From a virus, in IMG/VR virus record IMGVR_UViG_3300045988_180190: a stretch of 64,000 nucleotides of DNA; one strand, 5' to 3'. Shown piece after piece: positions 47,059 through 62,454 of the stretch. The notes beneath the pieces were generated by a model, which ran no database searches, was not told the origin of the DNA, and saw nothing but the letters and a program-made list of their open reading frames with translations. Position numbers and translations under genes: made by a program. Position 1 is the stretch's first letter; each line of letters starts with the position of its first letter.

Positions 47059-47463
47059 CTAACTTCTAGCTATATCTTTAGAAAAATCGTCTAGATTAGA
47101 TGTGAAATTAGGATCACCCGATCGCGAAATGGCATTGCGAAGAGCTTTAGCTTTTCCTCCCTGTCCTTGTGATTCAAGAATACTAACTTTCTTTCCCAAA
47201 TCCGCGAGTGCATCACTCTTCTTGCCATAATCGCTTAAAATATTTTTAAATAGATCATTATTATTGTCCAATAAGGTATCGTACTTACCAGACTCTCTGT
47301 CCTCCGAAGTTAAATTTGCCCCATAATTACTAGAGTCAAGAGTAGAATCCTTCTCATCCATATCCCCTCTGTCTGCTTGATTAAGCACAGATTCCGTAAT
47401 CTGATTCTTAATCCAGTCTGGGCTCGCTGCGAATTTTTTAAAATTTAAAATTTTAAATGACAT
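47059..47463 (-). CDS. NF-x-KFA-tagged hypothetical protein
   Basis: 134 aa. N-terminus MSFKILNFKKFAASPDW. Confidence 0.6.
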   Translation of the reverse strand: MSFKILNFKKFAASPDWIKNQITESVLNQADRGDMDEKDSTLDSSNYGANLTSEDRESGKYDTLLDNNNDLFKNILSDYGKKSDALADLGKKVSILESQGQGGKAKALRNAISRSGDPNFTSNLDDFSKDIARS

Positions 47464-47485: not shown

Positions 47486-48541
47486 TTAGCCTGCAGCAGT
47501 TGTGCCATTATTGGGGGTTTGCATAGCTACCTGTGGAGCAGTTCCCCATTGCTGAATTCCCTTAGCAACCTCCTCATTAACCGGAGCACCTTGATATGCC
47601 TGATATACCTTATCAACATCCTTGGGAGTAAAGTTAAATGTGGAGGCTAAGGTGCCATAATTATTCAGATTTTTTCCACGTATATTTCTAGCCATCAACT
47701 CATTATATGTTCTATTCATATTATTTTGATTTTGTAGATATGGCATCGCCTCAGCTCTTTGCTTTTGCATAAAATTATTATATGCCCAATTCTTTGGAAT
47801 AATTACTCCCATACCACTCAAGAATTTTTGAATACCTACTTTTATTTGATTCCAGAAATCTAAATTACGGAAATCTTGGTTTGCCTTATTTGTAAGTTGT
47901 TCAGAAGCCATAGCCTGAAAATTTCTAGATTGTGCCAAATTTTTCTGAACAGATTGCTGATAATTATTAGCATTATCTTGTAACGCCTTTGTGTAAGCGT
48001 TTACGTCATTAATATTCTTATTGTTTAATGTACCAGCGGCTAAATTATATCCTACAGACTTATAAGCTTCGTTAGTATCTCCTAATGCGGATCCAGTTCT
48101 GTCAGCCTCATTTACTTGGTTCTGAAAATTACGTGCAGAATTCATAGACCTTCTACCCAATTCCTGCTGTAAAGATTGGCGAGAGTTAGTCTTGCCCCCA
48201 AACAGAGTAGTACCCTTTATGACACGATCAGCACGTGCCTTCCCCATTGAATTTTTAAATCCATTTCCGCTTAACCATCCTATTCCTCCTTTTGCCGCGT
48301 CTACAGCCCAGGTAAGAGGACTATTCCACCCATAGTTTTCATTATAAACCTGGTTCACAGCGTCTCCAATTCCTTGGGTTAAATCCTCTCTAGGGGTTAA
48401 TGGCGCACTATTGTTTGCAAACTTTGCAAAATTAGACATATTCAGTCTGTTACTTATGCGCTGATGAGTTGTGGTAGAAGCAATCTTTAAGTGATCATTG
48501 TAATGCTTCGCAAATTTATTAAAATTTTGTATATTTAACAT
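47486..48541 (-). CDS. NF-x-KFA-tagged hypothetical protein (tag present twice)
   Basis: 351 aa. MLNIQNFNKFAKHY...(residue 35)MSNFAKFANNSAP. Asn/Gln-rich. Confidence 0.6.
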   Translation of the reverse strand: MLNIQNFNKFAKHYNDHLKIASTTTHQRISNRLNMSNFAKFANNSAPLTPREDLTQGIGDAVNQVYNENYGWNSPLTWAVDAAKGGIGWLSGNGFKNSMGKARADRVIKGTTLFGGKTNSRQSLQQELGRRSMNSARNFQNQVNEADRTGSALGDTNEAYKSVGYNLAAGTLNNKNINDVNAYTKALQDNANNYQQSVQKNLAQSRNFQAMASEQLTNKANQDFRNLDFWNQIKVGIQKFLSGMGVIIPKNWAYNNFMQKQRAEAMPYLQNQNNMNRTYNELMARNIRGKNLNNYGTLASTFNFTPKDVDKVYQAYQGAPVNEEVAKGIQQWGTAPQVAMQTPNNGTTAAG

Positions 48542-48543
48542 AA

Positions 48544-50820
48544 CTAAAATCTACCTGTTTTATCTACGTTTTCCGCAAAATCTGGCATAGACATTCTAAC
48601 GAACGGGTCTATATTGTCTTTAATATTTGTCTTATAACCTCTTACCGCAGATTCTACATAATTTTTAGCCTGGTAAGGAGCATTTGCTCTTTCCAAGAAA
48701 TCTGTATTTCCCTTATTGGGAACCTCTCTAAGTCTAACATACACAGGAGAAAAACCTGGTTCATTATCCGAAACATAAAGCTCATCTGTAATACCCGTGC
48801 GCTTAATATGGTCCAGCATCTTATTTGTAAGTTTTGTTCCTATTGTGTAATGTAATACTGGGGCTTGCAAGTATTTGCCTTTTAAATTAACATTTTTATC
48901 ATTGAGCTTTACTTTTTTTGCATCTTTGTCCGGTACATAAGAAGCCTCTAAAGCATTATAAGATACTATATCGCCAGGTAAGTAATCTCCTAATCCATCT
49001 GGATCGGTAATTTCTACCTTATCTACGATACCTCTAGCTAGGACTTCTAAATTTCTTTTATGCGCCGGTGCGTTACTATCGTCCAGTAGCTGTTTTCCCG
49101 TTTCCACGAAAACTCTCCTACCTTCCCCGAGTCCTCTTAGGCGTACAACGTCCTCTAAGTCTACTAAACCATCTGCTAGCTGGTCTCCCTGCTCGACTTC
49201 TTGACCTTCTTTAACTTCTATGTGAGAATCCGGGTCAGCATAATGCTCTATTCCATTAACAACTATATAAGTTCCACCTTGAGGAGCTGGTGTTATTCTT
49301 TCCACTCTCCCATCTGATTCTGCTAGAGGGGCACGAGATTTATAGTGCTCTGGAGATTCAAAAAACTGGTTAATATAATTAAATCCCGAAAAGGTTCTCT
49401 TCTTTCCTTTGAATCCCCCAGCTTCGTGTTTTGAAGAATTATGTGACAAGAGACCATTTTTTAATACGAATAAATGTGTATCTCCACTAATTTCTATGTC
49501 AAAACAATGCTGCAATCCTACATAGCGAATCTGTGTAATCTTCGCAGGGTCACCCCTTACGTCTAAACATAAATTTGAGTCAAATATTTCTTGCACTGGA
49601 AGGTCTTTTAATTCTCCGTATATTTTAAATCTATGTTGTCTAGTACAAACAACAGAATACTCTATATCATCAACAGAAAATATAACCTCATATACATTGC
49701 GAATATTCTGGTCTATAACAGAAATGATTTCCTCAGGAACTAGTGACTTACCATCTTTAGAGATACTTATTACCTTCTCCCCTGGTTTTAAATCCTTAAT
49801 TTTTTTAAACTGCTGTGACCATAGCATAACTTCTGTATCTTGATGCAAGCATAGTCCGCCCTGAATAGCAGGCTCACTAACAGAAGTTGCCGCTGCAATT
49901 CCTGCATGGAACTCTCCAATTCTAGGCAATCTTTTATTGTAATCCAATCCAAAAGCTTCTGCAGAAATACCTTCGGGAGAAACTGTGGCAATTGGAGAAT
50001 GCACTATCACAGTTTTTACACCTTTATTTTTAAGAGAATTTAGTACGTCACGATCAACTATGGTTCCCTCAGCAAATCCTCCCGCCGGACGCGCAAGCAC
50101 TCGTCCGTAAAGTGATGAGTCGTCTATGTCTAAGTCTATACCATTATTGGAAAGATCTTTTTTAGACGTAATCATCATATTTGCCACTGGGCGAAATAAA
50201 CTTTTACCCCAACCTCCAAATTTAGCTGTACTTTTTTTGATAGCGATAGTTGAAGCTCTTGTACCATAAGTGCTAGCTAAATATTCTGGAATGGATAATC
50301 CTTCTCCAAAACTTTTCTTAACAAAGAAAGGAATCGTTCTACCCTTATAATCTGTATAGAGTGCTGGAGTTGTAATTAAAGCTTTTAACTGAAAGGGAGA
50401 ACCTCTTGCTCCAGAGGATACAGAGTTATAAAGATTATTATGCTTTTCTTTAGCAGCATTCAGTGTATCTTTCTCAAGCTTTGTAGCATAACGTTCGTAT
50501 ACCTCCATTATAGCTTTGTTCTTTTTGTTTTCATCTTTTATATTCCTCCTTAAAAACTGCACCTCTTTATGCATTTCTTCCAGTGCAGCTTCCTTATCAA
50601 ATGGAGGTTTAAAATCCGAAAGTTTCAAAGTCTGTCCAGAGTAGTATACTGATTTACGAGCAATATCCATTAATTTATCCATTATATCCCTGTATCTGTC
50701 TGGATATTTTTCAGCAATAAGAGACTGCAACTCGTTTATTGACTTCGTGTCATATGTGCGAGTGTAGTCCCTTATATCCTCGGGTAAAACGGAATTAATT
50801 AAATATTGAATAGCTTTCAC
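48544..50820 (-). CDS. multisubunit RNA polymerase beta-prime subunit, C-terminal fragment, interrupted by a mini-intein
   Basis: 758 aa. SSGARGSPFQLKALIT, bridge-helix-like YLASTYGTRASTIAIKKSTAKFGGWGKSLFRPV, and trigger-loop-like SVSEPAIQGGL[intein]SSKHEAGGF match beta-prime motifs as I recall them (SGARG; GEPGTQLTMRTFH.GG). Confidence 0.8.
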   Translation of the reverse strand: MKAIQYLINSVLPEDIRDYTRTYDTKSINELQSLIAEKYPDRYRDIMDKLMDIARKSVYYSGQTLKLSDFKPPFDKEAALEEMHKEVQFLRRNIKDENKKNKAIMEVYERYATKLEKDTLNAAKEKHNNLYNSVSSGARGSPFQLKALITTPALYTDYKGRTIPFFVKKSFGEGLSIPEYLASTYGTRASTIAIKKSTAKFGGWGKSLFRPVANMMITSKKDLSNNGIDLDIDDSSLYGRVLARPAGGFAEGTIVDRDVLNSLKNKGVKTVIVHSPIATVSPEGISAEAFGLDYNKRLPRIGEFHAGIAAATSVSEPAIQGGLCLHQDTEVMLWSQQFKKIKDLKPGEKVISISKDGKSLVPEEIISVIDQNIRNVYEVIFSVDDIEYSVVCTRQHRFKIYGELKDLPVQEIFDSNLCLDVRGDPAKITQIRYVGLQHCFDIEISGDTHLFVLKNGLLSHNSSKHEAGGFKGKKRTFSGFNYINQFFESPEHYKSRAPLAESDGRVERITPAPQGGTYIVVNGIEHYADPDSHIEVKEGQEVEQGDQLADGLVDLEDVVRLRGLGEGRRVFVETGKQLLDDSNAPAHKRNLEVLARGIVDKVEITDPDGLGDYLPGDIVSYNALEASYVPDKDAKKVKLNDKNVNLKGKYLQAPVLHYTIGTKLTNKMLDHIKRTGITDELYVSDNEPGFSPVYVRLREVPNKGNTDFLERANAPYQAKNYVESAVRGYKTNIKDNIDPFVRMSMPDFAENVDKTGRF
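49438..49851 (-). other. mini-intein (residues 324-461 of the beta-prime fragment)
   Basis: Starts with Cys (CLHQDTEVML). Block B VVCTRQHRF. Blocks F/G CFDIEISGDTHLFVLKNGLLSHN, followed by Ser+1. About 138 aa, with no endonuclease-sized insert. Confidence 0.8.
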
Positions 50821-51484: not shown

Positions 51485-51531
51485 TAAAAAAGCAATAAAA
51501 AATATGGTAGTGAAATATATTTCACTACCAT
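51485..51531 (-). terminator. strong rho-independent terminator ending the secreted-protein island
   Basis: Perfect 28-nt palindrome at 51504-51531 (atggtagtgaaatatatttcactaccat), followed on the minus strand by attttttattgctttttt. Confidence 0.8.
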
Positions 51532-51556
51532 ACCTAAGATTATTTATAAATATGTG

Positions 51557-52228
51557 CTATTTAATAAGTTTTGCGTCAAGAATTCTTGCGGTTAAAGCCT
51601 TCTGCAGTGCTTGTATCTGCGTAAGAGCCTTAGCGTTTTTCTCTTGAAGCAATAGCACGCCTTCTATCTTATTGCATATGGACTTAGCGTCACTCGGGTT
51701 TTCCAAAGCTAGCAAGTTACTTGCAAAGAATTTAAATACTTCACCATCTTTCCAATACAAATCCGAAAAAGCTTCTGCAGGTGCTGTTAGGAAATAGGAA
51801 AAATCTTTCATTGCATATGCAATGTTCCCCTGCTGAGATATTTTCAGCTTATTTCCTTCTAGAATCCATCCGCCACTCTTTAAGTTGGCATAGAATGTTG
51901 GGTCTTGTGCGTCTTTTTCCCTAATAAATGTCTCGGGATGCAAGCAGCACAAAGTCCAGTCTGAACCCGTTAGCTTTAAGCCTGCACAATATGTGATGCA
52001 AAACATTTCACGTGAAGCATCATATACTTGTTTCTTTGCTTCATCCGAACTCTTGTAAGATTCCCAAGCAGCTTTTAGGTCGTCACCATTTGATTGGGTA
52101 AACTTAACTGTGTCTTCCCAACTTGTTGAGAATGCCGATTTAAACTCAGCCTTTAGTTCTTCTAATGATTTAGCATTTGCAGCTAAACAAACGAAGCAAG
52201 CGGTAATAGCTATAATAATTTTTTTCAT
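51557..52228 (-). CDS. secreted hypothetical protein
   Basis: 223 aa. Signal peptide MKKIIIAITACFVCLAANA/KS. Confidence 0.6.
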   Translation of the reverse strand: MKKIIIAITACFVCLAANAKSLEELKAEFKSAFSTSWEDTVKFTQSNGDDLKAAWESYKSSDEAKKQVYDASREMFCITYCAGLKLTGSDWTLCCLHPETFIREKDAQDPTFYANLKSGGWILEGNKLKISQQGNIAYAMKDFSYFLTAPAEAFSDLYWKDGEVFKFFASNLLALENPSDAKSICNKIEGVLLLQEKNAKALTQIQALQKALTARILDAKLIK

Positions 52229-52229
52229 G

Positions 52230-52514
52230 TTAGTTCCTATCTGTTATTAATGATTTAATTTCTTCTAAAATATAAATTTTTTTAAAGCCTATAGCTTTAT
52301 CATAATCCTGCCATTTGTACCAGATAAAAGTATTTGGGTACACATCAAATCGCTTCTTCCAAAACTCTAGTGGTAGCGATTGCTCGTACTTAAAAGTGAG
52401 CATATCATCTGCATAATCTATGAGATCGTTTAACTTATAAATATCATAATCAGGCGTTGAACCTAACAAGTATGCAAATGGCATACATAATATGCATAGT
52501 AATTTCTTTATCAT
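52230..52514 (-). CDS. small secreted/membrane hypothetical protein
   Basis: 94 aa. Hydrophobic N-terminus MIKKLLCILCMPFAYLLG. Confidence 0.5.
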   Translation of the reverse strand: MIKKLLCILCMPFAYLLGSTPDYDIYKLNDLIDYADDMLTFKYEQSLPLEFWKKRFDVYPNTFIWYKWQDYDKAIGFKKIYILEEIKSLITDRN

Positions 52515-53197
52515 AATTTAACCTTTGAATCTCCGTAGTATGTTGGAAGTATAGAAATCCATCTCTTTACACCACTCGGTAGTAGCTCAGCTTTAGACAT
52601 ATTTTGTCTCCATACTATTATAGTGTTATTAGGATCTGTAAAGATTTCTCTTATATAATCTCCTCTTTTTAATCTTCTTGTTGTAGAGTAGCGCCCAAAA
52701 CCTGTGTAAACCGGGACATTAACAATGTCGGTAGCATCCACTGAAGGATAAAACCAAACTCCTGTTGCAGTGTTGGAACCTAGAGAAGCTCCAATAGAAC
52801 CGGTTGCGTAATTCGAAAATTGTACCCGTTGCCCAAAACACCTGTTGTAATCCCCGCTACCTGAAGTAGAGAAATAGTATATTGTAGGACTTGAGTCTGT
52901 AATATTGGAGTGTCCATTTATATAGGTAGAGTATTGAAGTGAGAATGTTGCGGAGAAATACAAAGTATTTCTATACTGGTCTATGACTTTAATCTCAAAA
53001 TCCGAACAATATTTAGAGTCCGAATAAGGTGAAGGACTCATATCCACATATATGTAGAAATCCCTATATATTTTATTAACACTTGGTGACTTACCAGTTG
53101 TTGTATCATATACAAAGGGTTTAGTAGCCGAGTGCAGAGCTAGACTACAAAAGGCCATTAAACCTAGAAAATATAATTTTTTAATACTTAAAAACAT
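52511..53197 (-). CDS. secreted hypothetical protein
   Basis: 228 aa. Signal-like MFLSIKKLYFLGLMAFCSLALHSA. Beta-rich, Tyr/Ser/Thr-rich. Confidence 0.55.
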   Translation of the reverse strand: MFLSIKKLYFLGLMAFCSLALHSATKPFVYDTTTGKSPSVNKIYRDFYIYVDMSPSPYSDSKYCSDFEIKVIDQYRNTLYFSATFSLQYSTYINGHSNITDSSPTIYYFSTSGSGDYNRCFGQRVQFSNYATGSIGASLGSNTATGVWFYPSVDATDIVNVPVYTGFGRYSTTRRLKRGDYIREIFTDPNNTIIVWRQNMSKAELLPSGVKRWISILPTYYGDSKVKL

Positions 53198-53220
53198 AAT
53201 AATTCCTATTATCTAAACAT

Positions 53221-53550
53221 TTATTGGGAATTAAGCTCATTCCATTCCTCCTCAGTCAGATAAGATGGGCTAATGCCCCCTTCATCCTGATTAAATACTA
53301 AATATACAAACTTGTCAGGAATCTCCTGATTGCCGTTAAATACTTTCATTTTAATGTAAGACAAAGCTCCTTCCAATGCTATAGCATTAGAAACAATCTT
53401 TATATTTGTTAGTGGAACACCATTAGCGTCTGTATCTATAGACAGTTCACCAGAAGACTCTCCGGACGATTTTATATAACCGGAAGGATAAACAATCCTG
53501 TCATTTTGACAGGACGCTAAAGAAGTGGTATCTGTTCCAGAAGAAGACAT
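53221..53550 (-). CDS. hypothetical protein
   Basis: 109-aa ORF. Confidence 0.5.
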   Translation of the reverse strand: MSSSGTDTTSLASCQNDRIVYPSGYIKSSGESSGELSIDTDANGVPLTNIKIVSNAIALEGALSYIKMKVFNGNQEIPDKFVYLVFNQDEGGISPSYLTEEEWNELNSQ

Positions 53551-53551
53551 A

Positions 53552-54055
53552 TCAATTCTTTATTAGACTAAAAAATTCTGATGCTATTGTTATTGTTCCA
53601 CTTATACCGCCAAGTATACCTATTAAAAAAATCAATGCATTTTTAAAAAATGATTTTAATATATCTCCCTTTTCTAATTCTGCCTTATGTTTTCTCGCAA
53701 AGCTTATCGACTCATTAATACCATCTTCTACGCTATGCCTCCAAGTTTTTAACTGAATACAAGTACCATTGGTCTTACGTACTTCTCTAGAAATATTTTT
53801 TAATCTAGGGAGCATCCAGTCCATCTTCTGGCGAATTAGGTCAAGAGTAGTTAGCACGTACCTGTCCTTGGCAGAAATATCTCCCATTTGTGCCATCATA
53901 GCCTCGGCCTCAGTACTTATGTCAAACTCCGGAACTCTTAATTCTTCAATAGAGGATAGTTTTAATGCAATTTGATCATCAGTCGCATATAACTCTTCTC
54001 TAAGGTTATCTGAGTCTGACTGTACTGAGTCATTTATTTCCACTGGACGGTTCAT
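53552..54055 (-). CDS. tail-anchored membrane protein
   Basis: 167 aa. C-terminal hydrophobic span ALIFLIGILGGISGTITIASEFF. Confidence 0.5.
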   Translation of the reverse strand: MNRPVEINDSVQSDSDNLREELYATDDQIALKLSSIEELRVPEFDISTEAEAMMAQMGDISAKDRYVLTTLDLIRQKMDWMLPRLKNISREVRKTNGTCIQLKTWRHSVEDGINESISFARKHKAELEKGDILKSFFKNALIFLIGILGGISGTITIASEFFSLIKN

Positions 54056-54099
54056 CTACTTACCTAAATAATAACATAAAAATATTCTAAAAGTCTACA

Positions 54100-54366
54100 T
54101 CAGTTTTTAGATATTTTTACGTTGAACAAAAACTTACGCTTTGGGTTATTCGACCCGGGATTGCAATTTTTATCTATATTGCTTATGGTTTTTTCCACTA
54201 CAGTTAATTCCTGCTCTGCAGAAGGATTAACGAAATTATGAAACATTGTACCAATACCACTCATCTGCATCCACTCAGAAAGTGATGGCCCAAATGCTGA
54301 CATCCCCGCAGGGAGCGTGATACCTTTTGTCTTATATAGCTTATCTTTTTCTTCGTCAGTTAACAT
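54100..54366 (-). CDS. hypothetical protein
   Basis: 88-aa ORF. Confidence 0.45.
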   Translation of the reverse strand: MLTDEEKDKLYKTKGITLPAGMSAFGPSLSEWMQMSGIGTMFHNFVNPSAEQELTVVEKTISNIDKNCNPGSNNPKRKFLFNVKISKN

Positions 54367-54367
54367 A

Positions 54368-54733
54368 TTATTTATTATTTATTATTTCCATTCTGTAGGC
54401 ATCCGCCATATCCATGAAATAACGCATGTACTTTGGGGAAATTTTGTAATTACCGCCTGTGTCACACTTTGTAATGCCGTCATTTTTCTTTAATGGTGGA
54501 ATAATCCTATCCCCATATTTATCAATTAAAGCATTATAAAGATCAACTGTTTTTTTCGTTATTATGAAATATTTTCCATCTTCAATATCAACTAACCCAC
54601 CGGTCTGACCACCATACTCATCGTAGGATATACTGTCGCCATCTATGATGTCAGGAGTTTTATTCGTAGTGGAAAGGCAACCAGAAACACCTATAAGAAG
54701 AAAACTACAAAGAAATATTCTTGCGTATCTCAT
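54368..54733 (-). CDS. lipoprotein
   Basis: 121 aa. Signal plus lipobox MRYARIFLCSFLLIGVSG/C. 29-nt overlap with the upstream small ORF. Confidence 0.6.
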   Translation of the reverse strand: MRYARIFLCSFLLIGVSGCLSTTNKTPDIIDGDSISYDEYGGQTGGLVDIEDGKYFIITKKTVDLYNALIDKYGDRIIPPLKKNDGITKCDTGGNYKISPKYMRYFMDMADAYRMEIINNK

Positions 54734-54911
54734 CTAGAGCCTCCTTATCTCCGTTTAAGGAATCATGAATTAGCTTATTATGCTTGTCGGATTCTTTGTT
54801 TATTTTTTTAGCCATTTCATTGTCTGTTATCGTAGAATCCTTTGACCTGTTGGCAAAAATAGAAGCTATATACTCTATTATTCTTAAAATTGAGGCTATT
54901 ATTACGTGCAT
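54705..54911 (-). CDS. small protein with N-terminal hydrophobic segment and charged helical tail
   Basis: 68 aa. MHVIIASILRIIEYIASIF, then a Lys/Asp/Glu-rich tail. Confidence 0.4.
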   Translation of the reverse strand: MHVIIASILRIIEYIASIFANRSKDSTITDNEMAKKINKESDKHNKLIHDSLNGDKEALDEIRKNISL

Positions 54912-54917
54912 AATATA

Positions 54918-55877
54918 TTAAAAATAAGATTTATCAAATGTCCACATATCCATTACATAATGTGGGTCAGCTAAGAAAGAAGCTGGTAAATATCCGTACC
55001 CAAAATCTCCTGTGGATGTTCCCCAGCTGTTTATAAACTCAAAATATGTCTCACCCTTATGCTGCCTAAACCCTGTTATGCAAATAGCATGTCCGCCAAT
55101 TAATTCGGCAGACTCTATGTCTTCGCAAGGTGTCAAATACCCATAATAGTCAAAATAATCCATTTGCTCTTCGTAAAGATAAATACCCGCTATAATTGGT
55201 AAATGCTCAGATACTAAAACATTTTTGCAAACGGTTATGGGGTCATTCTTAGGATCTATCCTTAAATATTCATGTATCTTAAAGTTTAAATCTGTAGTAA
55301 TGTCTGATGGTGGATTGCTGCTGGGATTAAATTTATAAAACGGCATATAAGACTCTGGTATAACACCGTATTTCTTTAAACCCTGCATCAGGCTGCGCAG
55401 AGTTGCCCCTTGGTCTGGAAGTGGAGAAGTTGTTTTACCATAAAACTGGTCTTTGAACATAAAGTCTATAAATCTGGCATTATAATAGATATATAATGGA
55501 GATAATAGGAATGCTTCATCCCCAGACTTACTATGTTCAGCCATTTTTTTAAGCAAAATAAACACGGAAGCTGCACCTGCAAATCCTGTGCAGGCAGAAG
55601 TGTCCTTTTGATTTTGTACAGGTGGAGCATATTTGCGGAGAGAAAACTCATTTATACCGGAAATAGTGTCATTATATACAGATGCGCATAGCTTAATATG
55701 GTCTCTGCTATCTGGTTTATCCGGTTTGCAACCTAGAAGCCTAGCATTTCTGGAGTTTCTAAATCTAGATTCCATGAGACATTCTAATCTGTCTTTAACT
55801 CCGAGTTGTACTTCGTTATCTTTCTTTTTTAAAAGATGTTTTTTTATCCAATGCGATATGGTTTTAAAAAATGCCAT
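54918..55877 (-). CDS. papain-like (C1 family) cysteine peptidase
   Basis: 319 aa. VQNQKDTSAC with Q-x5-C spacing as in papain, GGHAICITGF, and FINSWG...GYGYL. All four catalytic-site positions (Q, C, H, N) are present. No obvious signal peptide. Confidence 0.75.
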   Translation of the reverse strand: MAFFKTISHWIKKHLLKKKDNEVQLGVKDRLECLMESRFRNSRNARLLGCKPDKPDSRDHIKLCASVYNDTISGINEFSLRKYAPPVQNQKDTSACTGFAGAASVFILLKKMAEHSKSGDEAFLLSPLYIYYNARFIDFMFKDQFYGKTTSPLPDQGATLRSLMQGLKKYGVIPESYMPFYKFNPSSNPPSDITTDLNFKIHEYLRIDPKNDPITVCKNVLVSEHLPIIAGIYLYEEQMDYFDYYGYLTPCEDIESAELIGGHAICITGFRQHKGETYFEFINSWGTSTGDFGYGYLPASFLADPHYVMDMWTFDKSYF

Positions 55878-55879
55878 AA

Positions 55880-56176
55880 TTAATTCCCATCTTTATTTTT
55901 AATTAAATTCCTAGCTTGCTGCACGTAAATTAGGCGATCACTTTCTGGAAAATACTTGAAGTATATAATTCCAAGGTCTACATCTGGTTTTTCCAAAATA
56001 GCGGGGTTTTTTAGAGCATCAAAATACAAAATCTGAACACAATTATTTTTGTAAAGTTCAATTTGCTGCTCCTTTATTGCCTCTATGTCATCCCTCAAAG
56101 AGAATTGCATCCTGCTTGTGCAGGACGCAACAAAAAGAGTTAATACACATAATAGAATTCTTACCATATTACGCAA
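55880..56176 (-). CDS. lipoprotein
   Basis: 98 aa. MRNMVRILLCVLTLFVAS/C lipobox. Confidence 0.6.
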   Translation of the reverse strand: MRNMVRILLCVLTLFVASCTSRMQFSLRDDIEAIKEQQIELYKNNCVQILYFDALKNPAILEKPDVDLGIIYFKYFPESDRLIYVQQARNLIKNKDGN

Positions 56177-56438
56177 TTTCCAGTTTAGGGGTTAATTTGC
56201 TATTAATGTTTTTCAGACTTATATAAATCTTTCTGGGAACACCAGTGTTATCCTTTAGGGTATAAAAGTCTTGAGCATTTGTGGCATCATTTGTCTCTAT
56301 AAAAGAAAATTTAGCTACAATGTTTTTACCTAGATTGGTTAACGGAGAGACCACCATGTCATAATATTTATCCTCTCCGTCATACACCGTCCTAAATCGA
56401 AGATTATATATAGAATCATTATTTACTTCTGTATTCAT
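56169..56438 (-). CDS. hypothetical protein
   Basis: 89-aa ORF. 8-nt overlap with the downstream gene. Confidence 0.45.
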   Translation of the reverse strand: MNTEVNNDSIYNLRFRTVYDGEDKYYDMVVSPLTNLGKNIVAKFSFIETNDATNAQDFYTLKDNTGVPRKIYISLKNINSKLTPKLEIA

Positions 56439-56696
56439 CTATTTCTTTTGATCTGCTACATATTGCTCTGGGTCCACTACCCTCATATCCTTTAAAAACT
56501 CTACGTTAAAAAATGATTCATATCTACGGGTTGTGTCCGTATCTCTAAAATCAAATAAATCAAGAGTTCCTGTTAGTTTATTCTGTACAAGAACGGACAT
56601 TATTTTTCCTTCTTCGTTGCACAGCTCTACAAATGAGATATCCTTTGGAATATCTATTGTCTGCTTATCAATAGCTGATCTTAAACGAATAAGCAT
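56439..56696 (-). CDS. hypothetical protein
   Basis: 85-aa ORF, abutting the next gene. Confidence 0.45.
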   Translation of the reverse strand: MLIRLRSAIDKQTIDIPKDISFVELCNEEGKIMSVLVQNKLTGTLDLFDFRDTDTTRRYESFFNVEFLKDMRVVDPEQYVADQKK

Positions 56697-56699: not shown

Positions 56700-57752
56700 T
56701 TATAACTTGGGGGCTTCTGGAAGATTGCCACCTTGCATTATACTAATAATAGTAGAATATTGCCCAGCTATCTGTGAATATTTACTTTGTAGATCAGTAA
56801 ATGCATTTCTGAGGTCGGTTATATCTTGACGCAAAGCGGCAATATCTTGCTCCTGCTTTTGCACCGTGGAACCAAATTCCTCAAGCATCGGGATTAGATC
56901 CCCCACTGGGTCTCCTTGTGGCGCTGGTGCTCCGCCAGCCATGGAAGGATCCATTGGGGGCATTCCTCCTGCCATAGCTGGATCCATAGGCGGCATTCCG
57001 CCTGCCATGGACGGGTCCATAGGTGGCATTCCACCTGCCATTGGAGGCATTCCTCCCGCCATAGATGGATCCATTGGCGGCATTCCGCCTTGTTGTGGAG
57101 GCATTCCTGCAGCTCCAGCTTTCTTCTCTGCGGGGACGAAAGCTCGTTTAGCAAATTCTAAGTATTCTTCAACTGTTGTAGGATTAGTTATATCTTTTGA
57201 CATATCTATAAAATTATTTAATTTATTTTTTAATATTAATCGTATACCTAAATTCTTCAAGTATTCATTTCCCTCAGTCAAGGATTTAAATAAAGATTGC
57301 GACTGAATATTATCTTCATGCGCTGTCCATACTGGATTTTTAAGTTTACCATATCCACTGGTTGATTCGTAATTTTTTATAGCCTCCGCTACCATTTTTT
57401 TAGCTATACCTTTACCCCTATATCCTTTAAGTAAAGCAACACTAATATATTCCCCAGGGATTCTCTCATATGAAGATAACTCTGGAACCTCTCTTCTTGG
57501 TGTGATACCAACGAACCCAATCACCTTATTTTTATACACCAAAGCATAGATCCTATCAAATGAGCCATTAAAATTTTCCAATAATAACCCATTCCACCAA
57601 TATTCTGGATGTTCCTTCTCTACGTCGTAAAAAAGCTTTCTTAAATCTAATTCAAGTTCATCCTCAGTTAAACCCACTCGATTCCTAGGTGAAGACGCCC
57701 CAAGGTGAAACCCGTAATTCTCTATATCTAAAGGCACTATTTTATTAATCAT
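56700..57752 (-). CDS. GNAT-family acetyltransferase fused to a Met/Pro-rich repeat and a C-terminal coiled coil
   Basis: 350 aa. GNAT motif A LLKGYRGKGIAKKMVAEAI. Residues ~213-277 are GGMPPMDPSMA-type repeats. C-terminal QDIAALRQDITDLRNAFTDLQSKY. Confidence 0.7.
   Translation of the reverse strand: MINKIVPLDIENYGFHLGASSPRNRVGLTEDELELDLRKLFYDVEKEHPEYWWNGLLLENFNGSFDRIYALVYKNKVIGFVGITPRREVPELSSYERIPGEYISVALLKGYRGKGIAKKMVAEAIKNYESTSGYGKLKNPVWTAHEDNIQSQSLFKSLTEGNEYLKNLGIRLILKNKLNNFIDMSKDITNPTTVEEYLEFAKRAFVPAEKKAGAAGMPPQQGGMPPMDPSMAGGMPPMAGGMPPMDPSMAGGMPPMDPAMAGGMPPMDPSMAGGAPAPQGDPVGDLIPMLEEFGSTVQKQEQDIAALRQDITDLRNAFTDLQSKYSQIAGQYSTIISIMQGGNLPEAPKL
56922..57116 (-). repeat. in-frame tandem repeat encoding (GGMPPM[DPSMA])n
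   Basis: Repeated ggcattcc(g/t/a)cc(t)gcc / atgga(t/c)ccat units are visible on the plus strand. The antisense ORFs in the track are artefacts of this repeat. Confidence 0.8.
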
Positions 57753-57762: not shown

Positions 57763-58590
57763 CTATCTCCTAATATTGTTTTTATACATATTCGCCCAAG
57801 GGTTACGTTCTTTAAGTTGACCCTTGTCATTAGGAATAGTTATTGGTGTAAAACCACTATCTGGTGTCACAATAGGATTATTAACATCAAATTCTCTATC
57901 TAGGTTTATTTGTGGTGCAGAAGGAGGTTGTTCTAGTTGTATTAAAGGTTTTCTATTCTGGCTGGTACTGGGAATTGGGGTGTTTGTTGGGGCTGTGCTA
58001 CTTCTAGAATTATTTGATGGTGTAAGCCCAAGATCTCGCTCTAGTGCATTAATTGTTGTAGTCCATCTTAAGGTAGGATTCTTTTTGGTCCTCATCCACT
58101 CCTGCTCTCTTCTCCAAACTGCAGAATCTCTAAGGTTGCGTATAATTCCGGCATAGTCTCCCTTTGCAAGTGACTCTCTAAACTTTGGCCAATTTGCAAG
58201 ATTTGCATTAAACCCTAGTGTTGCAAGTCGGTTTTGTGCACTTATGGGAAGCTTATTAAATCCTTTTAATTTACGTACACTTACATTATTCTTAAAATAC
58301 CAATCTTGTAATTGGCTTGATATATTCCTTGGTATATGTGCACCCACCTTTAGGTCACCAGTATACTTTAGTTTTTTACGTAGATACTCTTGAACCTCTG
58401 GGTATAATTTTACCCCTCCTGGTAAAGTTGGAATATCCTTATCGGCTAAATCTGCTGAGTCCATGTAAATTAAATCATTATTTTTTACCCCCCAGCCTTC
58501 AAACTTACGCAAATCATTTAATGATTGTGCGTAATCATACACTTTTGAAGATGTGGCAGCAAATTTTCTAAAGTTACTTATCTTTATCAT
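57763..58590 (-). CDS. NF-x-KFA-tagged lysozyme-like (GH24/T4-lambda lysozyme-type) protein
   Basis: 275 aa. N-terminus MIKISNFRKFAATS. LRKFEGWG...YMDSAD...PTLPGG fits the E..D..T catalytic pattern. LATLGFNANLANWPKFRESLAKGDYAGIIRNLRDSAVWRRE resembles the T4-lysozyme C-lobe. Confidence 0.5.
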   Translation of the reverse strand: MIKISNFRKFAATSSKVYDYAQSLNDLRKFEGWGVKNNDLIYMDSADLADKDIPTLPGGVKLYPEVQEYLRKKLKYTGDLKVGAHIPRNISSQLQDWYFKNNVSVRKLKGFNKLPISAQNRLATLGFNANLANWPKFRESLAKGDYAGIIRNLRDSAVWRREQEWMRTKKNPTLRWTTTINALERDLGLTPSNNSRSSTAPTNTPIPSTSQNRKPLIQLEQPPSAPQINLDREFDVNNPIVTPDSGFTPITIPNDKGQLKERNPWANMYKNNIRR

Positions 58591-59119: not shown

Positions 59120-59207
59120 GGTGTAAAAGTCTTGCAGATTTTATAAATTAATCAATCCAAATGTTATACTATTTACATATCAACTAAGGTAAATATCCAT
59201 CTTTAAG

Positions 59208-60335
59208 TTAGGAATCTTTACCTGAATTATTATACCAATTTGAAATATTTTTACCAAATGACTTTAAAGGTTTCATCCAATCTGATAAAGTTCGAGAGGC
59301 AGCTTGAATACGCTTCTTAGCCGTATCTACTCCTGTCTCTACTGCTTTTCCGATAGGTTGTACAACTCTATTATCAAATTTCTCTCCTGGAGTTAAAACA
59401 GCAGCAGCGTGGGACCTCGCATCTCTAGGTGCTATGATATTTTTTCCAATTACATTCTTGCTATTTTTGGCATCATTTAGTCTATCCACAAAATTCGCAT
59501 TTGCCTGCATTTGGGAAGCCACGGCTTTACCTATTGTAGAACCCGTCATACCCGCTTTCTCCTTTATCTTATTAATTATTGATGGAGCCTTCCTCTTCAT
59601 CTCCTGCTTATAATTGCTTAAAGCAAGCCTGTACATTGCTGCTTCAGTAGTTAAGTTTTTGCGCTCAGTCGGGGATAAACTTGTGTCTTTCGCTCTACTG
59701 CTTAACTCTTTAATCTTAGCTTGGTAGCCTGCTACTGTGGAATTCCATTTGTCAGACTCAGCTTTCATAAGCTTGTTATATTTATCTTCCGCAGTATCTA
59801 TAGTTTTCTGCATCTCTGGATTAAGCACGGTGGATTTATCCATGCCTAATACTTTTGTAAGCATATTATATCTCTTGTTATAGGCATCATCAGAGGCACC
59901 AGTGAGCGGACTTGACCTATACGTGTTCAACTCCTCTGGAGATAAATTACGCGCTCCTTCTCTAAGAGAAGAAATATAATCAGCAAAATTTATTTTTTCT
60001 CTCTTCCCAGCGTCTATATGGTCTATGGATCTCTGTTCTGAAAGAGACAATGGAACTTGAGTTGTGCCTTTTGCAAGAAAATAAAGTTGGTTTAAAAACC
60101 CGTTACCTTGTAAATTTCCTTGTTTATCATATTTTAGAAGAGACCTCCATAAAGGATCACTCCAAGAATTATAACGATCAAAAATTCCTAAATACCTATC
60201 ACCTTTATTCCTCAAGCTGGGTATATTTTGCTTTGGATACAAAGAGTCGTAATCCTCCGCAAGCTCCGGAAAGTACTTGCGGAGGTAGTTATAATTTAAA
60301 GGTTCAGAATTACCCATATAATTTAGTTTATCCAA
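59208..60335 (-). CDS. hypothetical Lys-rich helical protein
   Basis: 375-aa ORF. 8-nt overlap with the upstream gene. Confidence 0.6.
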   Translation of the reverse strand: MDKLNYMGNSEPLNYNYLRKYFPELAEDYDSLYPKQNIPSLRNKGDRYLGIFDRYNSWSDPLWRSLLKYDKQGNLQGNGFLNQLYFLAKGTTQVPLSLSEQRSIDHIDAGKREKINFADYISSLREGARNLSPEELNTYRSSPLTGASDDAYNKRYNMLTKVLGMDKSTVLNPEMQKTIDTAEDKYNKLMKAESDKWNSTVAGYQAKIKELSSRAKDTSLSPTERKNLTTEAAMYRLALSNYKQEMKRKAPSIINKIKEKAGMTGSTIGKAVASQMQANANFVDRLNDAKNSKNVIGKNIIAPRDARSHAAAVLTPGEKFDNRVVQPIGKAVETGVDTAKKRIQAASRTLSDWMKPLKSFGKNISNWYNNSGKDS

Positions 60336-61279
60336 AATTTATTGGATTATCCTGTAAGTATTTAGCTAAAGCTCCAAGACCCAATCCTCCGATTCCTAAC
60401 CCTAAGGCTCCTTTCCAACCTCCGGCAAGTCCACCTATTCCAGATCCTAGGAGTGCCGGTATGGCATAATAAGATAATTCAGGGTTATCCTTAACAAATT
60501 TTTGAAGGTCTCCAATTGTCGAGCGTACAGTCCAGGGTGAATTTTTATCGGATAAACTACTCCCAGCATATCCCGCTAAACCTCCAGCTCCAAAACCACC
60601 AATGTAGGGCATTGCAGCTCTTACATAAGGATTTTTAACTTTAGATGCCGCACGTCCTATACCTTCAAGAACTTTGTTAGCTTTACCTGAAGATTTCGAT
60701 AATAATCTGCTTAATCTTTCATTTGGTTTACCATAAGCAGCGTAATATCTCTTTTTTAAACGTTCAGGATAATTTTCTGCAGTTTCCAAACGTTTTGCTT
60801 TAGCGTCTAACTCCTTATTTAAGATATTTAATGCTTTCTGACTTTCATCCACATATGCAGCATGTGTGGCTCTTTGGGCATCTAATTCTTTATTTACACG
60901 TCCCAAATTATTTTCTGCAGTTCCTAGGAGTTCGGTTTTAGCACCTAATTCTTTCTTTTAGCCTATTTAATTCTTTATTTGCACGCTCAAAATTATTTTG
61001 AGCAGCAGCCAACTCTTCTCTTGCCTTACGTAAAGCAGGACTTGTTCTCGGCTTAGTCGTAGTTGGCTTTTTAGATCGTAAGGGAGCTTTTTTATTTCTC
61101 ATTCTGTTTAATAATGCTGCGCCACCTATAGCCCCTGACATTCCACCTCCCACAACTAAAGATGTTAAAGGATCTATGGTTTCAGCACCATAATCAAAGG
61201 GATCTCCCTGTATGCCTGGTACTAAATTGGTTTCTGGAAGATTATCCGCAAATTTATTAAAATTAGAAGTGTTCATCAT
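60328..61279 (-). pseudogene. glycine-zipper paralog split by a +1 frame change (ORFs 60938..61279 and 60328..60906)
   Basis: The upstream ORF carries the tag MMNTSNFNKFA and a Gly-rich span. The downstream ORF has no ATG before residue 99 and carries the family C-terminus. Its frame is open from 60957, and the two frames overlap only across 60941-60957. Confidence 0.55.
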
Positions 61280-61339
61280 AATTAACTTATTATATTCAGT
61301 GTGCTAATTAACACAAATTTTTAAAAATCTGTCAATTGT
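61280..61339 (-). promoter_or_regulatory. conserved upstream block, copy 1 (TAATTA-centred imperfect palindrome)
   Basis: tattcagtgtgctaattaacacaaattttt. Palindrome tgtgctaattaacaca at 61300-61315. Confidence 0.45.
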
Positions 61340-62400: not shown

Positions 62401-62454
62401 TTTATGGAAAATTTAAATAAAAATAGTGCTGTTACATCACCATCGATATATACC

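Follow-up and report, generated by a model that had tools for sequence, protein, structure and literature searches.

The twelve small genes at positions 51557-56696 on the minus strand of an uncultured phage genome are best explained as a composite run, formed by the end of an upstream unit, a six-gene envelope core and a variable slot. The run itself is best explained as the downstream end of a single long transcription unit on the minus strand. The core is under strong purifying selection and may, with somewhat less than an even chance, be a late lysis or envelope-disruption module built on a papain-family (C1A) cysteine peptidase. The genome, analysed here in a stretch of 64,000 nucleotides (the window), is at least 164 kb long (the longest related contigs have 164-174 kb) and encodes a multisubunit RNA polymerase. 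In its host, Shine-Dalgarno sites are probably used sparingly, as in Bacteroidota.

All twelve minus-strand ORFs are present, and since each has orthologues and dN/dS values against a 98% identical relative are 0.00-0.51, all are real genes. As predicted originally from the sequence, the products comprise two lipoproteins, three signal-peptide proteins, two membrane proteins (one N-anchored, one tail-anchored) and a papain-like protease, here an intact C1A peptidase. Orthologues at 25-83% identity have kept the lipobox cysteines, the hydrophobic N-terminal regions and the tail anchor. The proposed envelope-directed content is borne out: membrane or exported proteins are encoded by 7 of 12 ORFs in the run and by 6 of 52 in the rest of the window (Fisher p=0.0013). 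Scans of ten run proteins with PHROG, Pfam, NCBIfam and PADLOC yielded nothing for the small proteins except one weak match to an unannotated PHROG; the 85- and 89-aa proteins, for which the scans covered PHROGs and Pfam, had no match. Judged by sequence, the small proteins other than the peptidase are orphans, and the two that were modelled, LP121 and SP228, are orphans in predicted fold as well.

The run had been considered an accessory island. However, no compositional signal for an island was observed, the GC content being equal to that of the neighbours, and there is no 5' boundary. The same-strand genes go on upstream, spaced by 3 and 10 nt or overlapping, and the first sizeable gap is 88 nt at 59120-59207. 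The upstream part is as follows (L numbers denote other contigs and lineages).

57763-58590, minus strand: muralytic protein of the GH24 (T4-lysozyme-like) type, N-terminal motif MIKISNFRKFA
56700-57752, minus strand: fused GNAT acetyltransferase (Pfam Acetyltransf_1, 9e-10), Pro/Met-rich repeat and coiled coil; upstream of the run, same unit
56439-56696, minus strand: 85-aa cytoplasmic protein without TM segment, signal peptide, Pfam or PHROG match
56169-56438, minus strand: featureless 89-aa protein, 58% identical in L002/L004, dN = 0 against L001

In L006, L009, L010, L012 and L014, the gene next to the coiled-coil one on its 3' side is an orthologue of the 85-aa gene (phmmer E 1e-10 to 1e-26). 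The 85-aa gene follows the Pro/Met-rich coiled-coil gene in every case and belongs to the upstream GNAT/coiled-coil unit, not to the envelope genes. Counterparts of the 89-aa gene in L012 (74 aa) and L010 (165 aa) have other lengths and are positional equivalents only. Together, the 85- and 89-aa genes close a cytoplasmic unit that is conserved and comprises GNAT, the Pro/Met-rich coiled coil and the 85-aa gene. The fused gene is represented by two separate genes in L010, L012 and L014, and in L006 and L009 the GNAT domain forms a fusion with lysozyme-LysM. The GH24 family profile matches T4 lysozyme with E 3e-5 over residues 5-147, covering the E and D catalytic motifs; this protein is probably virion-internal. 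Its position is filled by a Tlde1-domain protein in L012. The protein at this position in L010 is SLT-like by eye only, with no tool match.

The envelope core consists of six genes.

55880-56176, minus strand: LP98, lipoprotein of 98 aa, lipobox VAS/C19, always directly 5' of the peptidase gene
54918-55877, minus strand: xylellain-type papain-family (C1A) cysteine peptidase, 319 aa, candidate endolysin
54705-54911, minus strand: TM68, 68-aa bitopic membrane protein, candidate holin or alternatively i-spanin
54368-54733, minus strand: LP121, lipoprotein of 121 aa, lipobox VSG/C19
54100-54366, minus strand: protein of 88 aa, conserved motif KGIT-P-GM-A-GP...MSGIGT, C-terminal tail basic (KRKFLFNVKISK)
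53552-54055, minus strand: TA167, tail-anchored membrane protein of 167 aa, whose only hydrophobic stretch (137-160) is followed by 8 residues

The whole set of twelve is syntenic even in a lineage where the peptidase is only 63% identical, and eight genes, from the 85-aa gene to the tail-anchored one, have the same order down to 43-46% peptidase identity. The eight-gene order is complete in L012 and L010; the L009 and L014 contigs extend only to the peptidase gene or slightly beyond it and contain the upstream part only. The core order is kept in the window and L001, in L002-4 and L018-23, in L012, and in L010 (LP98 through TA167), and with part-length contigs in at least five divergent lineages. 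The LP98-peptidase-TM68-LP121 genes are separated by spacers of 2-6 nt, with a conserved gene overlap. By sequence comparison, only the slot after the tail-anchored gene varies. Of the two features that were to speak against an island, conservation in related phages was found, and synteny with known structural genes was not.

The peptidase matches Pfam Peptidase_C1 (PF00112) with 28.4 bits (cut-off 20.7, E 2e-6), and among solved structures its best match is xylellain (3OIS, E 6e-11). The catalytic residues Q90, C96, H263 and N283 all lie within their motifs, so that the papain-like protease of the original prediction is upheld. No signal peptide was found in it, and the N-terminus forms an amphipathic helix (muH 0.56-0.82). 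Intact catalytic residues without an export signal are also characteristic of holin-dependent endolysins. There are 28 homologue clusters. A homologous C1 domain (pairwise E 1e-13, Cys/His/Asn aligned) forms the N-terminus of the 753-aa protein of Alicyclobacillus phage MMB025, automatically annotated as endolysin, which also contains Rv2525c_GlyHyd-like and PG_binding_1 domains. In the unrelated phage contig L016, a peptidase homologue (E 5e-22) is immediately 5' of a PHROG holin (4e-25). The next genes encode a PHROG endolysin match (8e-25), which looks like a signal-bearing SLT enzyme, and a candidate i-spanin, whose single TM helix is N-terminal; they are joined by a lipobox ORF in overlap (candidate o-spanin). 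Within the clade, the peptidase is accompanied by muralytic genes: a lysozyme in L014, and a lysozyme-LysM-GNAT fusion and a Peptidase_C92 in L006. The latter has kept the peptidase and the tail-anchored protein; TM68, LP98 and LP121 were not detected there. To our knowledge, no established class of endolysins consists of C1A peptidases, and a literature search found no paper describing one as an endolysin.

One could instead regard the peptidase as a host-takeover or anti-defence effector that cuts a cytoplasmic or inner-membrane protein of the host; its neighbours would be unrelated small membrane proteins, co-transcribed with it by chance. The missing export signal, the membrane-seeking helix and the heterogeneous contexts in distant phages are in line with this, as is the repeated acquisition of xylellain-type C1A genes by unrelated phages and giant viruses (PMC10380794). 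However, the tight and conserved LP98-peptidase-TM68-LP121 order with its gene overlap argues for a functional unit, three independent lines tie the peptidase to wall-acting or lysis genes, and no PADLOC or anti-defence similarity was found. We thus consider the effector role quite improbable.

Slightly less improbable, although still doubtful, is a role of the block in virion morphogenesis or ejection. The N-terminal motif N-F-x-K-F-A marks the products of genes on both flanks, which are presumably virion-internal; among them are the lysozyme-like protein and a family whose C-termini have Gly-zippers. The motif is similar to capsid-targeting or processing leaders. The peptidase would trim this leader (F-x-K-F-A) from head-internal proteins, or would itself be packaged and ejected, and the membrane proteins would anchor assembly to the inner membrane. 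Phe at P2 suits papain-like enzymes, and the N-terminus of the peptidase loosely resembles the motif (FFKTIS, FTKFF). The homologues in L011 and L016 have head-gene neighbourhoods: the former is surrounded by head and connector-like genes, and the latter, with its lysis cassette, is placed between the portal and MuF genes. Moreover, one gene of the slot in L012 matches a virion-structural PHROG, and the window showed no other recognisable maturation protease. The last point means little, because Pfam and PHROGs recognise almost nothing in this genome. On the other hand, the motif proper is present in 0 of 12 run proteins, which agrees with the initial impression that none looks like a virion part. 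A capsid assembled in the cytoplasm cannot take up proteins routed by Sec and lipoprotein signals, and the L016 homologue adjoins a holin, not a scaffold or capsid gene. The head-maturation proteases of tailed phages that we know of have folds other than C1A.

Returning to lysis, TM68 has the hallmarks of a holin: small size, a single TM helix and a charged C-terminus. The N-terminal helix (mean hydrophobicity 0.58, muH 0.52) has a polar stripe (S7, R10, E13/Y14, S17); as a caveat, R10 and E13 are inside the hydrophobic segment. The C-terminal domain of 47 aa is highly charged. There are no K/R residues ahead of the helix and two behind it, and thus the positive-inside rule predicts the N-out/C-in topology. 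TM68 is 78-82% identical in L002/L004, has orthologues in L010 and L012, and belongs to no PHROG, Pfam or NCBIfam family. The LP121 gene starts 29 nt inside the TM68 gene and is preceded by a strong AAGGAGG of its own, a type of site that is scarce in this genome. The overlap is also 29 nt in L012 and about 26-29 nt in L002/L004. LP121 and TM68 are the most conserved small proteins, at about the level of an RNA polymerase subunit; LP121 is 82-83% identical in L002/L004, with dN/dS of 0.14.

The layout had been described as unlike a canonical lysis cassette. It is closer than claimed, having the enzyme, a small TM protein, an overlapping lipoprotein gene and a lysozyme-like gene just upstream. 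TM68 and LP121 have 47 and 102 aa outside the membrane, and the sum of the two is inside the range reported for two-component spanins (62-300 aa; PMC6139136). However, the pair does not fit the i-spanin/o-spanin topology, as the positive-inside rule places the soluble domain of TM68 in the cytoplasm. Past the lipid anchor, LP121 is predicted to have a disordered tether of about 25 aa and a small beta-beta-alpha-beta-beta-alpha domain (AF2, pLDDT about 85 at residues 44-120 and <50 at 1-43), whereas Rz1 of lambda is proline-rich and unstructured. This domain has no fold match in PDB, and the five homologue clusters of LP121 are all from this phage group. LP121 is not a specific inhibitor of the neighbouring muralytic enzyme, because it stays unchanged when that enzyme is exchanged (lysozyme, Tlde1-domain, possibly SLT-like). 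No u-spanin, that is, a lipobox and a C-terminal TM helix in one protein, was found among the run proteins; reports of spanins in Bacteroidetes phages are confined to this type (PMC12596118).

LP98 starts at MVRILL in an independent gene call, giving 95 aa. Its lipobox is LTA/C in L002/L004, VS/C in L012 and L009, CS/C in L010 and TA/C in L014. The NCBIfam match to spanin2_2 (E 0.014, 15.5 bits with a cut-off of 100) covers the signal peptide only and is not significant. The 88-aa protein has orthologues in L002/L004, in L012 (99 aa) and, shorter, in L010 (59 aa), with no family match. The N-terminal domain of TA167 (about 135 aa) is predicted to be helical and cytoplasmic. Orthologues of TA167 were found in L002/L004 (68-71%), L012 (4e-49), L010 (9e-21) and L006 (1e-4), and only 16 representatives exist among 1.84 billion proteins. 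No credible Pfam domain was found in the ten homologues scanned; the many Pfam matches of one of 519 aa (P0114) are of low complexity and not credible.

The variable slot of the window and the terminator are as follows.

53221-53550, minus strand: 109-aa acidic protein, first gene of the slot
52511-53197, minus strand: SP228, beta-rich secreted protein of 228 aa with a Sec signal, first gene of a swapped trio
52230-52514, minus strand: SP94, 94 aa, N-terminal signal peptide or signal anchor, second gene of the trio
51557-52228, minus strand: SP223, helical protein of 223 aa with a Sec signal (ANA/K), third gene of the trio
51485-51535, minus strand: intrinsic terminator, a 16-bp hairpin and a U-run, end of the transcription unit

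The 109-aa protein is restricted to the window and L002 lineages (59-60% identical in L002/L004) and is absent from L010 and L012. After the tail-anchored gene, the slot is empty in L010 and contains five ORFs in L012 (63, 479, 422, 59 and 868 aa). It is best explained as a recombination hot spot. L018 and L022 are about 93% identical on each flank and have no detectable DNA similarity across the trio, with sharp edges; the trio is exchanged between genomes as one cassette. SP223 of L001 is 84% identical, with 97-100% for the core neighbours, and identity is 25% in L002/L004 but 44% in L022. SP94 has a 29-aa insertion in L001 and is 32-33% identical in L002/L004. It has no canonical AXA site in this genome, and its signal peptide could instead be a signal anchor; the cleavage site of the orthologue, AMA/D, is canonical. 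For SP228 there are 67 homologue clusters (38-95% identity). The protein has a mosaic insert of about 45 aa, and its predicted structure (AF2, pLDDT 77, pTM 0.74) is without a fold match in PDB or BFVD. The dN/dS values are 0.51 for SP228, 0.41 for SP223 and 0.18 for SP94, compared to 0.03-0.26 for the six core genes.

Such features would be expected under superinfection exclusion, where an arms race makes exchanged signal-peptide genes evolve fast. Phages encode proteins that block receptors or the entry of competitors, such as Llp of T5, Cor, and Sp and Imm of T4. The whole block could be an accessory cassette of this type, or one for remodelling the host envelope, given the seven exported or membrane products, the swapped and partly fast-evolving trio, and the many diverged SP228 alleles in metagenomes. 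As an account of the whole block this is unlikely, since the core is not accessory: its order and content are kept at the deepest peptidase divergence, under purifying selection, with LP121 constant beside exchanged muralytic enzymes. The cytoplasmic cysteine peptidase would have no place in exclusion systems known to us, and no run protein is homologous to known exclusion or defence proteins. For the trio alone, exclusion is viable. Among the functions initially proposed (lysis, exclusion or remodelling), lysis is best supported for the central genes, and exclusion or a host-interface role is plausible for the last three.

The perfect 28-nt palindrome noted earlier at 51504-51531 is confirmed as part of the terminator. 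The minus-strand stem of 16 bp (51535-51500) has dG -19.7 kcal/mol (z -5.75), and 0 of 200 shuffles fold as well. In L002/L004 another hairpin with a T-run takes its place.

A canonical lysis cassette could reside in the approximately 95 kb of the genome beyond the window. In the lysis module proposed here, the peptidase, having no signal peptide, would build up in the cytoplasm, perhaps bound to the membrane via its amphipathic helix. TM68, with its single oligomerising TM helix and charged tail, would act as the holin giving the enzyme access to the wall, where it would cleave the peptide stems of peptidoglycan or envelope tethers. The two lipoproteins, exported by Sec/Lol, the basic-tailed 88-aa protein and TA167 may stand in for recognisable spanins and perform or time the disruption of the outer and inner membranes. 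The signal-peptide trio and the 109-aa gene would most likely face the periplasm or the host surface, acting in superinfection exclusion or lysis timing, and the hairpin terminator would close the transcription unit.

All twelve minus-strand genes of the original prediction are present as it gave them. Both lipoboxes, VAS/C and VSG/C, are kept across the alignment of orthologues, as are the signal-type regions of three candidate exported proteins (SP228, SP94, SP223), the helix of the 68-aa N-anchored protein TM68 and the membrane anchor at the C-terminus of TA167 (167 aa). Membrane or exported products are enriched, with seven of the twelve in the run against six of 52 elsewhere in the window (p=0.0013). 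The dN/dS ratio is below one for every gene of the run, and therefore the genes are real. Contig L001, a 98% relative, served as the reference for dN/dS because synonymous sites are saturated in comparison with the more distant contig L002. The palindrome of the terminator is exact, as predicted. It is part of a hairpin with a 16-bp stem (dG -19.7, z -5.75) that lies 21 nt past the stop codon of SP223 and leads into a U-run on the coding strand; a positional equivalent exists in L002 and its relative L004. Scans for sigma-70 promoters stayed at chance level. A motif resembling TGAATATAATAA gave 42 matches against 26.5 expected, and was dropped as a shared promoter because many of the matches lie inside genes.

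Features of the run and its immediate neighbourhood.
51557-56696, minus strand: twelve-gene run, from the 85-aa gene (first) to SP223 (last)
54918-55877, minus strand: C1A peptidase gene of the run
56700-57752, minus strand: GNAT acetyltransferase with a Pro/Met-rich repeat and coiled coil
57763-58590, minus strand: lysozyme-like protein
59120-59207: 88-nt gap
48544-50820, just downstream of the run: part of the beta-prime subunit of a multisubunit RNA polymerase, broken by a Hint-type intein

The run has no 5' border. Upstream of it come further genes of the same strand, spaced by 3 and 10 nt or overlapping, which encode the GNAT protein, the lysozyme-like protein and a membrane protein and extend to the 88-nt gap. 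The GC content of the run (0.34-0.38) is the same as that of its neighbours and its composition is not deviant. No tRNA, integrase or repeats were seen at its borders.

Proteins on both sides of the run share an N-terminal motif N-F-x-K-F-A (for example MMNTSNFNKFA, MIKISNFRKFA, MLNIQNFNKFA), which is also found internally in 56700-57752, between the GNAT and coiled-coil halves. Similar leaders (KQFIKTAS, KKFSN, LLKFAVA) occur in relatives. At the C-terminus, several of them have membrane-like Gly-zipper segments. By analogy with the internal proteins of T4, the motif looks like a capsid-targeting or protease-processing leader of head-internal or ejected proteins. It is absent from all twelve proteins of the run, in agreement with the prediction that these are not virion parts.

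Genes whose products carry the N-F-x-K-F-A motif.
62455-62904: motif present
61340-62341: motif present
60938-61279: motif present
57763-58590: motif present, lysozyme-like protein
47486-48541: motif present twice
47059-47463: motif present
44557-46989: weaker motif
39042-40682: weaker motif
36707-37225: weaker motif

Four paralogous genes at 60328-62904 have a common C-terminal Gly-zipper segment (GGLAGGWKGALGLGIGGLGLGALAKYLQDNP), and the upstream regions of three of them are near-identical. This family is expanded differently in L001 and in L012, a more distant lineage, and was not detected in L002 and L004. The gene at 47486-48541, encoding a 351-aa protein with two F-x-K-F-A motifs, is the site of a second cassette-like replacement, besides that of the signal-peptide trio described below, between genomes otherwise 90-95% identical (in contig L018, 12990-14075, compared with contig L022). 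Between lineages, identity of its product is no more than 30-38%. The lysozyme-like protein, too, has had its C-terminal tail replaced.

The family profile of the lysozyme-like protein matches T4 lysozyme (3e-5) across the catalytic Glu and Asp. The muralytic protein at this position is exchanged among lineages, being a GH24-like lysozyme, a Tlde1-domain protein or, as judged by eye, an SLT-like protein. The GNAT domain, fused to the Pro/Met-rich coiled coil in the window, is encoded by a separate gene in the related contigs L010, L012 and L014, and is part of a lysozyme-LysM fusion in contigs L006 and L009.

Loci showing domain shuffling in the upstream unit.
Window: 56700-57752 and 57763-58590
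L006: 13780-15309
L009: 3860-5428
L010: 3830-4751
L012: 1798-2505 and 7152-8173

The run had been described as an accessory island. All twelve genes occur in the same order in the lineage of contigs L002-L004 and L018-L023, where the peptidase is only 63% identical to that of the window. More distant lineages were found via homologues of the peptidase and of the 121-aa lipoprotein LP121. In L012 and L010 the genes for GNAT and the Pro/Met coiled coil are followed by the 85-aa gene, a small ORF, a lipoprotein gene, the peptidase gene and a gene for a TM protein of about 68 aa, and then by genes for a lipoprotein of about 120 aa, a small basic-tailed protein and a tail-anchored protein. The short contigs L009 and L014 have the same gene order up to the peptidase. 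From the 85-aa gene through TA167, gene order is kept in at least five lineages, and this part is not an island; only the slot after the tail-anchored gene is variable.

In the window and in the L002 lineage, this slot contains a 109-aa gene, the three signal-peptide genes and the terminator. In L012 it contains five ORFs (63, 479, 422, 59 and 868 aa), with a match to a virion-structural PHROG for one of them; no significant link was found between the 109-aa protein and these products. In L010 the slot is empty, and the tail-anchored gene is directly followed by a conserved 201-aa gene preceding the polymerase subunit. The DNA of L018 and L022 is about 93% identical on either side of the signal-peptide trio, with no detectable similarity exactly across it, and the L022 alleles are nearer to those of the window (42-44% versus 25-33%). 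The highest dN/dS values of the run belong to SP223 and SP228 (0.41-0.51, against 0.03-0.26 in the core). Since the content of the slot varies among lineages and the trio has been swapped between L018 and L022, the accessory part is limited to 51557-53550, with the cassette proper at 51557-53197. The twelve-gene run is not one unit, and the original interpretation as a whole is partly supported, in the form of a conserved, strongly selected envelope module and a small, truly variable cassette.

The swapped secreted cassette is similar in behaviour, not in sequence, to hypervariable host-interface loci of other phages. T5 Llp and T4 Sp, Imm and RI are likewise small lipoproteins or signal-bearing periplasmic proteins from lytic phages, and the fast divergence of the trio fits a role at the interface with competing phages or the host. 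However, they have no sequence or fold similarity to the proteins of the run, and the two lipoproteins of the run belong to its core rather than to the accessory part. T5 llp adjoins the gene for a receptor-binding protein, whereas no such gene was recognised beside the lipoprotein genes of the window. Comparison with known superinfection-exclusion, defence and anti-defence families in PADLOC, PHROGs and NCBIfam produced no homologues. SP228 has many alleles, and a search of PDB and BFVD with its model (pLDDT 77) gave no match with E below 0.08.

The predicted papain-like protease of the run is a genuine papain-family enzyme. This 319-aa protein scores above the threshold of Pfam Peptidase_C1 (PF00112, 28.4 bits, cut-off 20.7), the same domain is found in all 28 clusters of its homologues, and its best solved relative is xylellain, the C1A cysteine protease of Xylella fastidiosa (PDB 3OIS, E 6e-11). 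The oxyanion-hole Gln and the catalytic Cys, His and Asn are intact and lie in papain-family motifs; Q90, C96 (NQKDTSAC), H263 (GGHAI) and N283 (INSWG) are kept by every orthologue and line up with homologues. These motifs and a C-terminal D-x-W-x-F/I motif match those of xylellain. In both proteins a short N-terminal extension takes the place of the long cathepsin-type propeptide, and neither has a signal peptide. However, the alignment is limited to query residues 88-314 and identity is low. The phage peptidase has its own amphipathic N-terminal helix (muH 0.56-0.82), which is kept in most lineages of the clade and absent in L010, and its gene resides in a fixed neighbourhood of lipoprotein and membrane-protein genes. 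To our knowledge, C1A peptidases are not an established endolysin class, and a literature search for a C1A endolysin did not find a description of one. Xylellain-type 'short bacterial C1A peptidases' have been acquired by Caudoviricetes, without an assigned function (PMC10380794).

Three independent associations link this type of peptidase, indirectly, to wall degradation and lysis. Firstly, its only match in a cultured phage is a domain at the N-terminus of CDS0095 of Alicyclobacillus phage MMB025 (PV686781.1), a 753-aa protein called an endolysin by automatic annotation; the second match in phage records comes from an unannotated, uncultured phage. The MMB025 domain is homologous (Peptidase_C1 / C39_2-like), with catalytic residues aligned to those of the window peptidase. 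However, it is fused to Rv2525c-type glycoside-hydrolase-like and peptidoglycan-binding (PG_binding_1) domains in a phage of a Gram-positive host, whereas the window peptidase is a single-domain protein without a wall-binding module. Secondly, in L016, an unrelated high-GC phage contig, a homologue of the peptidase (5e-22) is encoded immediately upstream of a bona fide lysis cassette consisting of a PHROG holin (4e-25), a signal-bearing, SLT-looking endolysin (8e-25), a candidate i-spanin and an overlapping lipobox ORF. Finally, members of the clade pair the peptidase gene with lysozyme genes (L014), or with both a Peptidase_C92 and a fusion of lysozyme, LysM and GNAT (L006). The peptidase resembles holin-dependent endolysins in having no N-terminal hydrophobic export signal. 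The TM68 gene begins 6 nt downstream.

TM68 has a TM helix at residues 1-21 (KD 1.77; Eisenberg H 0.58, muH 0.52), hydrophobic with a narrow polar stripe, and a 47-aa tail with about 10 basic and about 10 acidic residues. This agrees with the generic description of a holin, namely small size, one or more TM helices, a highly charged hydrophilic C-terminus and a gene beside that of a candidate lysin, features that are necessary and not specific. None of the described holin families in PHROG, Pfam and NCBIfam matched it.

Another possibility is that TM68 and LP121 form a two-component spanin. LP121 has two features of the lipoprotein subunit, namely a lipobox (VSG/C19, kept) and a gene overlapping that of its partner. 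The LP121 gene begins 29 nt inside the TM68 gene, behind a strong AAGGAGG; the 29-nt overlap is found in the window and L012, and a similar one in L002 and L004. The parts outside the membrane (47 aa in TM68 and 102 aa in LP121) fall within the combined periplasmic length of 62-300 aa reported for two-component pairs (PMC6139136). However, although TM68 has a helical charged domain, it has zero Lys or Arg before its TM helix and two after it, so that the positive-inside rule predicts a cytoplasmic soluble domain, opposite to the type II (N-in, C-out) orientation of an i-spanin with its largely helical periplasmic domain. In turn, LP121 is predicted to fold as a beta-beta-alpha-beta-beta-alpha domain, carried on a tether of about 25 residues, rather than to form a proline-rich thread. 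The spanin analogy for this pair is the weaker one. No unimolecular spanin, with an N-terminal lipobox and a C-terminal TM helix in one protein, was found: neither of the lipoproteins LP98 and LP121 has a C-terminal TM helix, and TA167 is without a signal. The unimolecular type is the only one reported so far in phages of Bacteroidetes (PMC12596118).

Of the small proteins in the region, LP121 is the most conserved. It has five clusters of homologues, apparently all in this phage group, and in a fold search with its model (domain pLDDT about 85) no match reached an E below 0.4. The idea of an inhibitor of chagasin, Ivy or MliC type is unsupported, and is also contradicted by the fact that LP121 stays while the neighbouring muralytic enzyme is exchanged.

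The LP98 gene is always immediately upstream of the peptidase gene. Its product's match to NCBIfam spanin2_2 was rejected, since it scores 15 bits against a cut-off of 100 and spans the signal peptide only. An exhaustive HMMER search of 1.84 billion proteins recovered 16 representatives of TA167, apparently all in this phage group, and Pfam scanning of ten of the 16 gave no credible domain. The small proteins matched nothing significantly in Pfam, PHROGs, NCBIfam and PADLOC, and no paralogues of the run proteins were found within the window. No analogues can be named for LP98, the basic-tailed 88-aa protein and TA167.

The minus strand carries almost all genes of the window, whose GC content stays at about 0.37 along its whole length. 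The region had no match in a nucleotide search against 50,697 phage records, and the closest cultured relatives of its RNA polymerase subunit, from Vibrio, Salmonella and Rhizobium jumbo phages, have only about 27% identity. Judged by these comparisons, the phage is distant from any cultured phage. Related and near-identical contigs of 90-174 kb are present in IMG/VR, Logan and ENA assemblies; about 95 kb of the phage genome lies outside the 64-kb window. The 'moraphage' lineage, described in a paper on jumbo phages of Bacteroidota, is a different one. Shine-Dalgarno-like sequences precede about one fifth of the window genes, barely over background (7-24% of genes against 8-11% in the window, L002, L006, L010 and L012), and a perfect AAGGAGG stands before few genes, that of LP121 among them. 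This scarcity suggests a Bacteroidota-like host with selective use of Shine-Dalgarno sites. A Gram-positive host of L006, considered as an explanation of its missing lipoproteins, was rejected, as this contig is equally poor in such sites.

Thirty further proteins of the window were scanned with Pfam in case a capsid gene, maturation protease or second lysin was among them, and almost nothing turned up; Rfam and tRNA scans found nothing. The 812-aa product of 26338-28776 has a DUF2345 (VgrG/spike-like) match just under the threshold (E 1e-5), which is the sole direct sequence hint of virion genes here besides the polymerase subunit and the lysozyme-like gene. The 312-aa product of 11787-12725, with a weak Sigma70_r3 match below the threshold (E 0.0016) and an HTH-like C-terminus, may be a phage sigma-like factor. 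The intein of the beta-prime fragment reads CLHQDTEV...SHNS; the 619-aa L012 orthologue (17532-19391) has no intein, and the L006 orthologue contains Hint and Hom_end_hint domains. An IS200/IS605-type element lies inside the phage region.

Genes of the IS200/IS605-type element.
31745-32197, minus strand: TnpA Y1 transposase, matching PDB 2EC2 and ISHp608 at 1e-29 to 1e-30
32233-33291, plus strand: TnpB/Cas12f-like protein (3e-16), the sole sizeable plus-strand gene in the window

In L006 and another related contig, L007, a TnpB gene is directly upstream of the peptidase gene.

There is slightly less than an even chance that the six-gene core (LP98, the peptidase, TM68, LP121, the 88-aa protein and TA167) is a lysis or envelope-disruption module. 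In the likeliest mechanism the C1A peptidase would be the endolysin and TM68 the holin. The order of enzyme, holin-like protein and lipoprotein is near that of a classical cassette. It shares several traits with the canonical cassettes of phages of Gram-negative bacteria (lambda S-R-Rz/Rz1 and the L016 cassette): the gene for an enzyme of muralytic type, lacking an export signal, directly precedes that for a small membrane protein whose C-terminus is charged, and the lipoprotein gene starts inside the gene before it. The conserved module likewise ends a long same-strand unit, with probable genes for virion proteins and RNA polymerase around it and a terminator to close it, and the L016 cassette has a homologue of the core peptidase at its head. 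However, the enzyme is a papain-family C1A peptidase rather than a glycosidase, amidase, CHAP/NlpC-P60 or M15/M23 peptidase. The core contains no protein predicted to be N-in/C-out with a long periplasmic coiled coil (i-spanin), its lipoprotein is a folded domain, its small proteins match no holin or spanin family, and it has additional conserved partners (the second lipoprotein, the tail-anchored protein and the 88-aa protein). The module would work most like a lysis cassette, with several features of spanins and of described holin families lacking or in doubt.

A more specific proposal, which we consider unlikely, is that the core is an undescribed lysis system of uncultured large phages infecting Shine-Dalgarno-poor hosts, probably Bacteroidota. 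The C1A peptidase would replace the glycosidase or amidase, a single-helix holin would free the peptidase, and the two lipoproteins, the tail-anchored protein and the basic-tailed 88-aa protein would constitute a new apparatus for disruption of the outer membrane in place of spanins.

The core is a good experimental lead with a plausible role in lysis, as far as function can be read from association alone. The lysis genes of phages on Bacteroidota-like hosts, chiefly of large uncultured phages, are poorly known, and equivalents of spanins can seldom be made out there. If the core does serve lysis, the papain family proper would join the phage wall-degrading enzymes, the xylellain-type C1A genes repeatedly acquired by phages would gain a biological role, and the small envelope proteins could show by what means a phage lacking classical spanins opens the outer membrane. 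Should it not serve lysis, the core is still a conserved, strongly selected, membrane-directed module without known relatives. The exchange of the three secreted-protein genes as a cassette amounts to a clean natural experiment on how a phage-host or phage-phage interface evolves.
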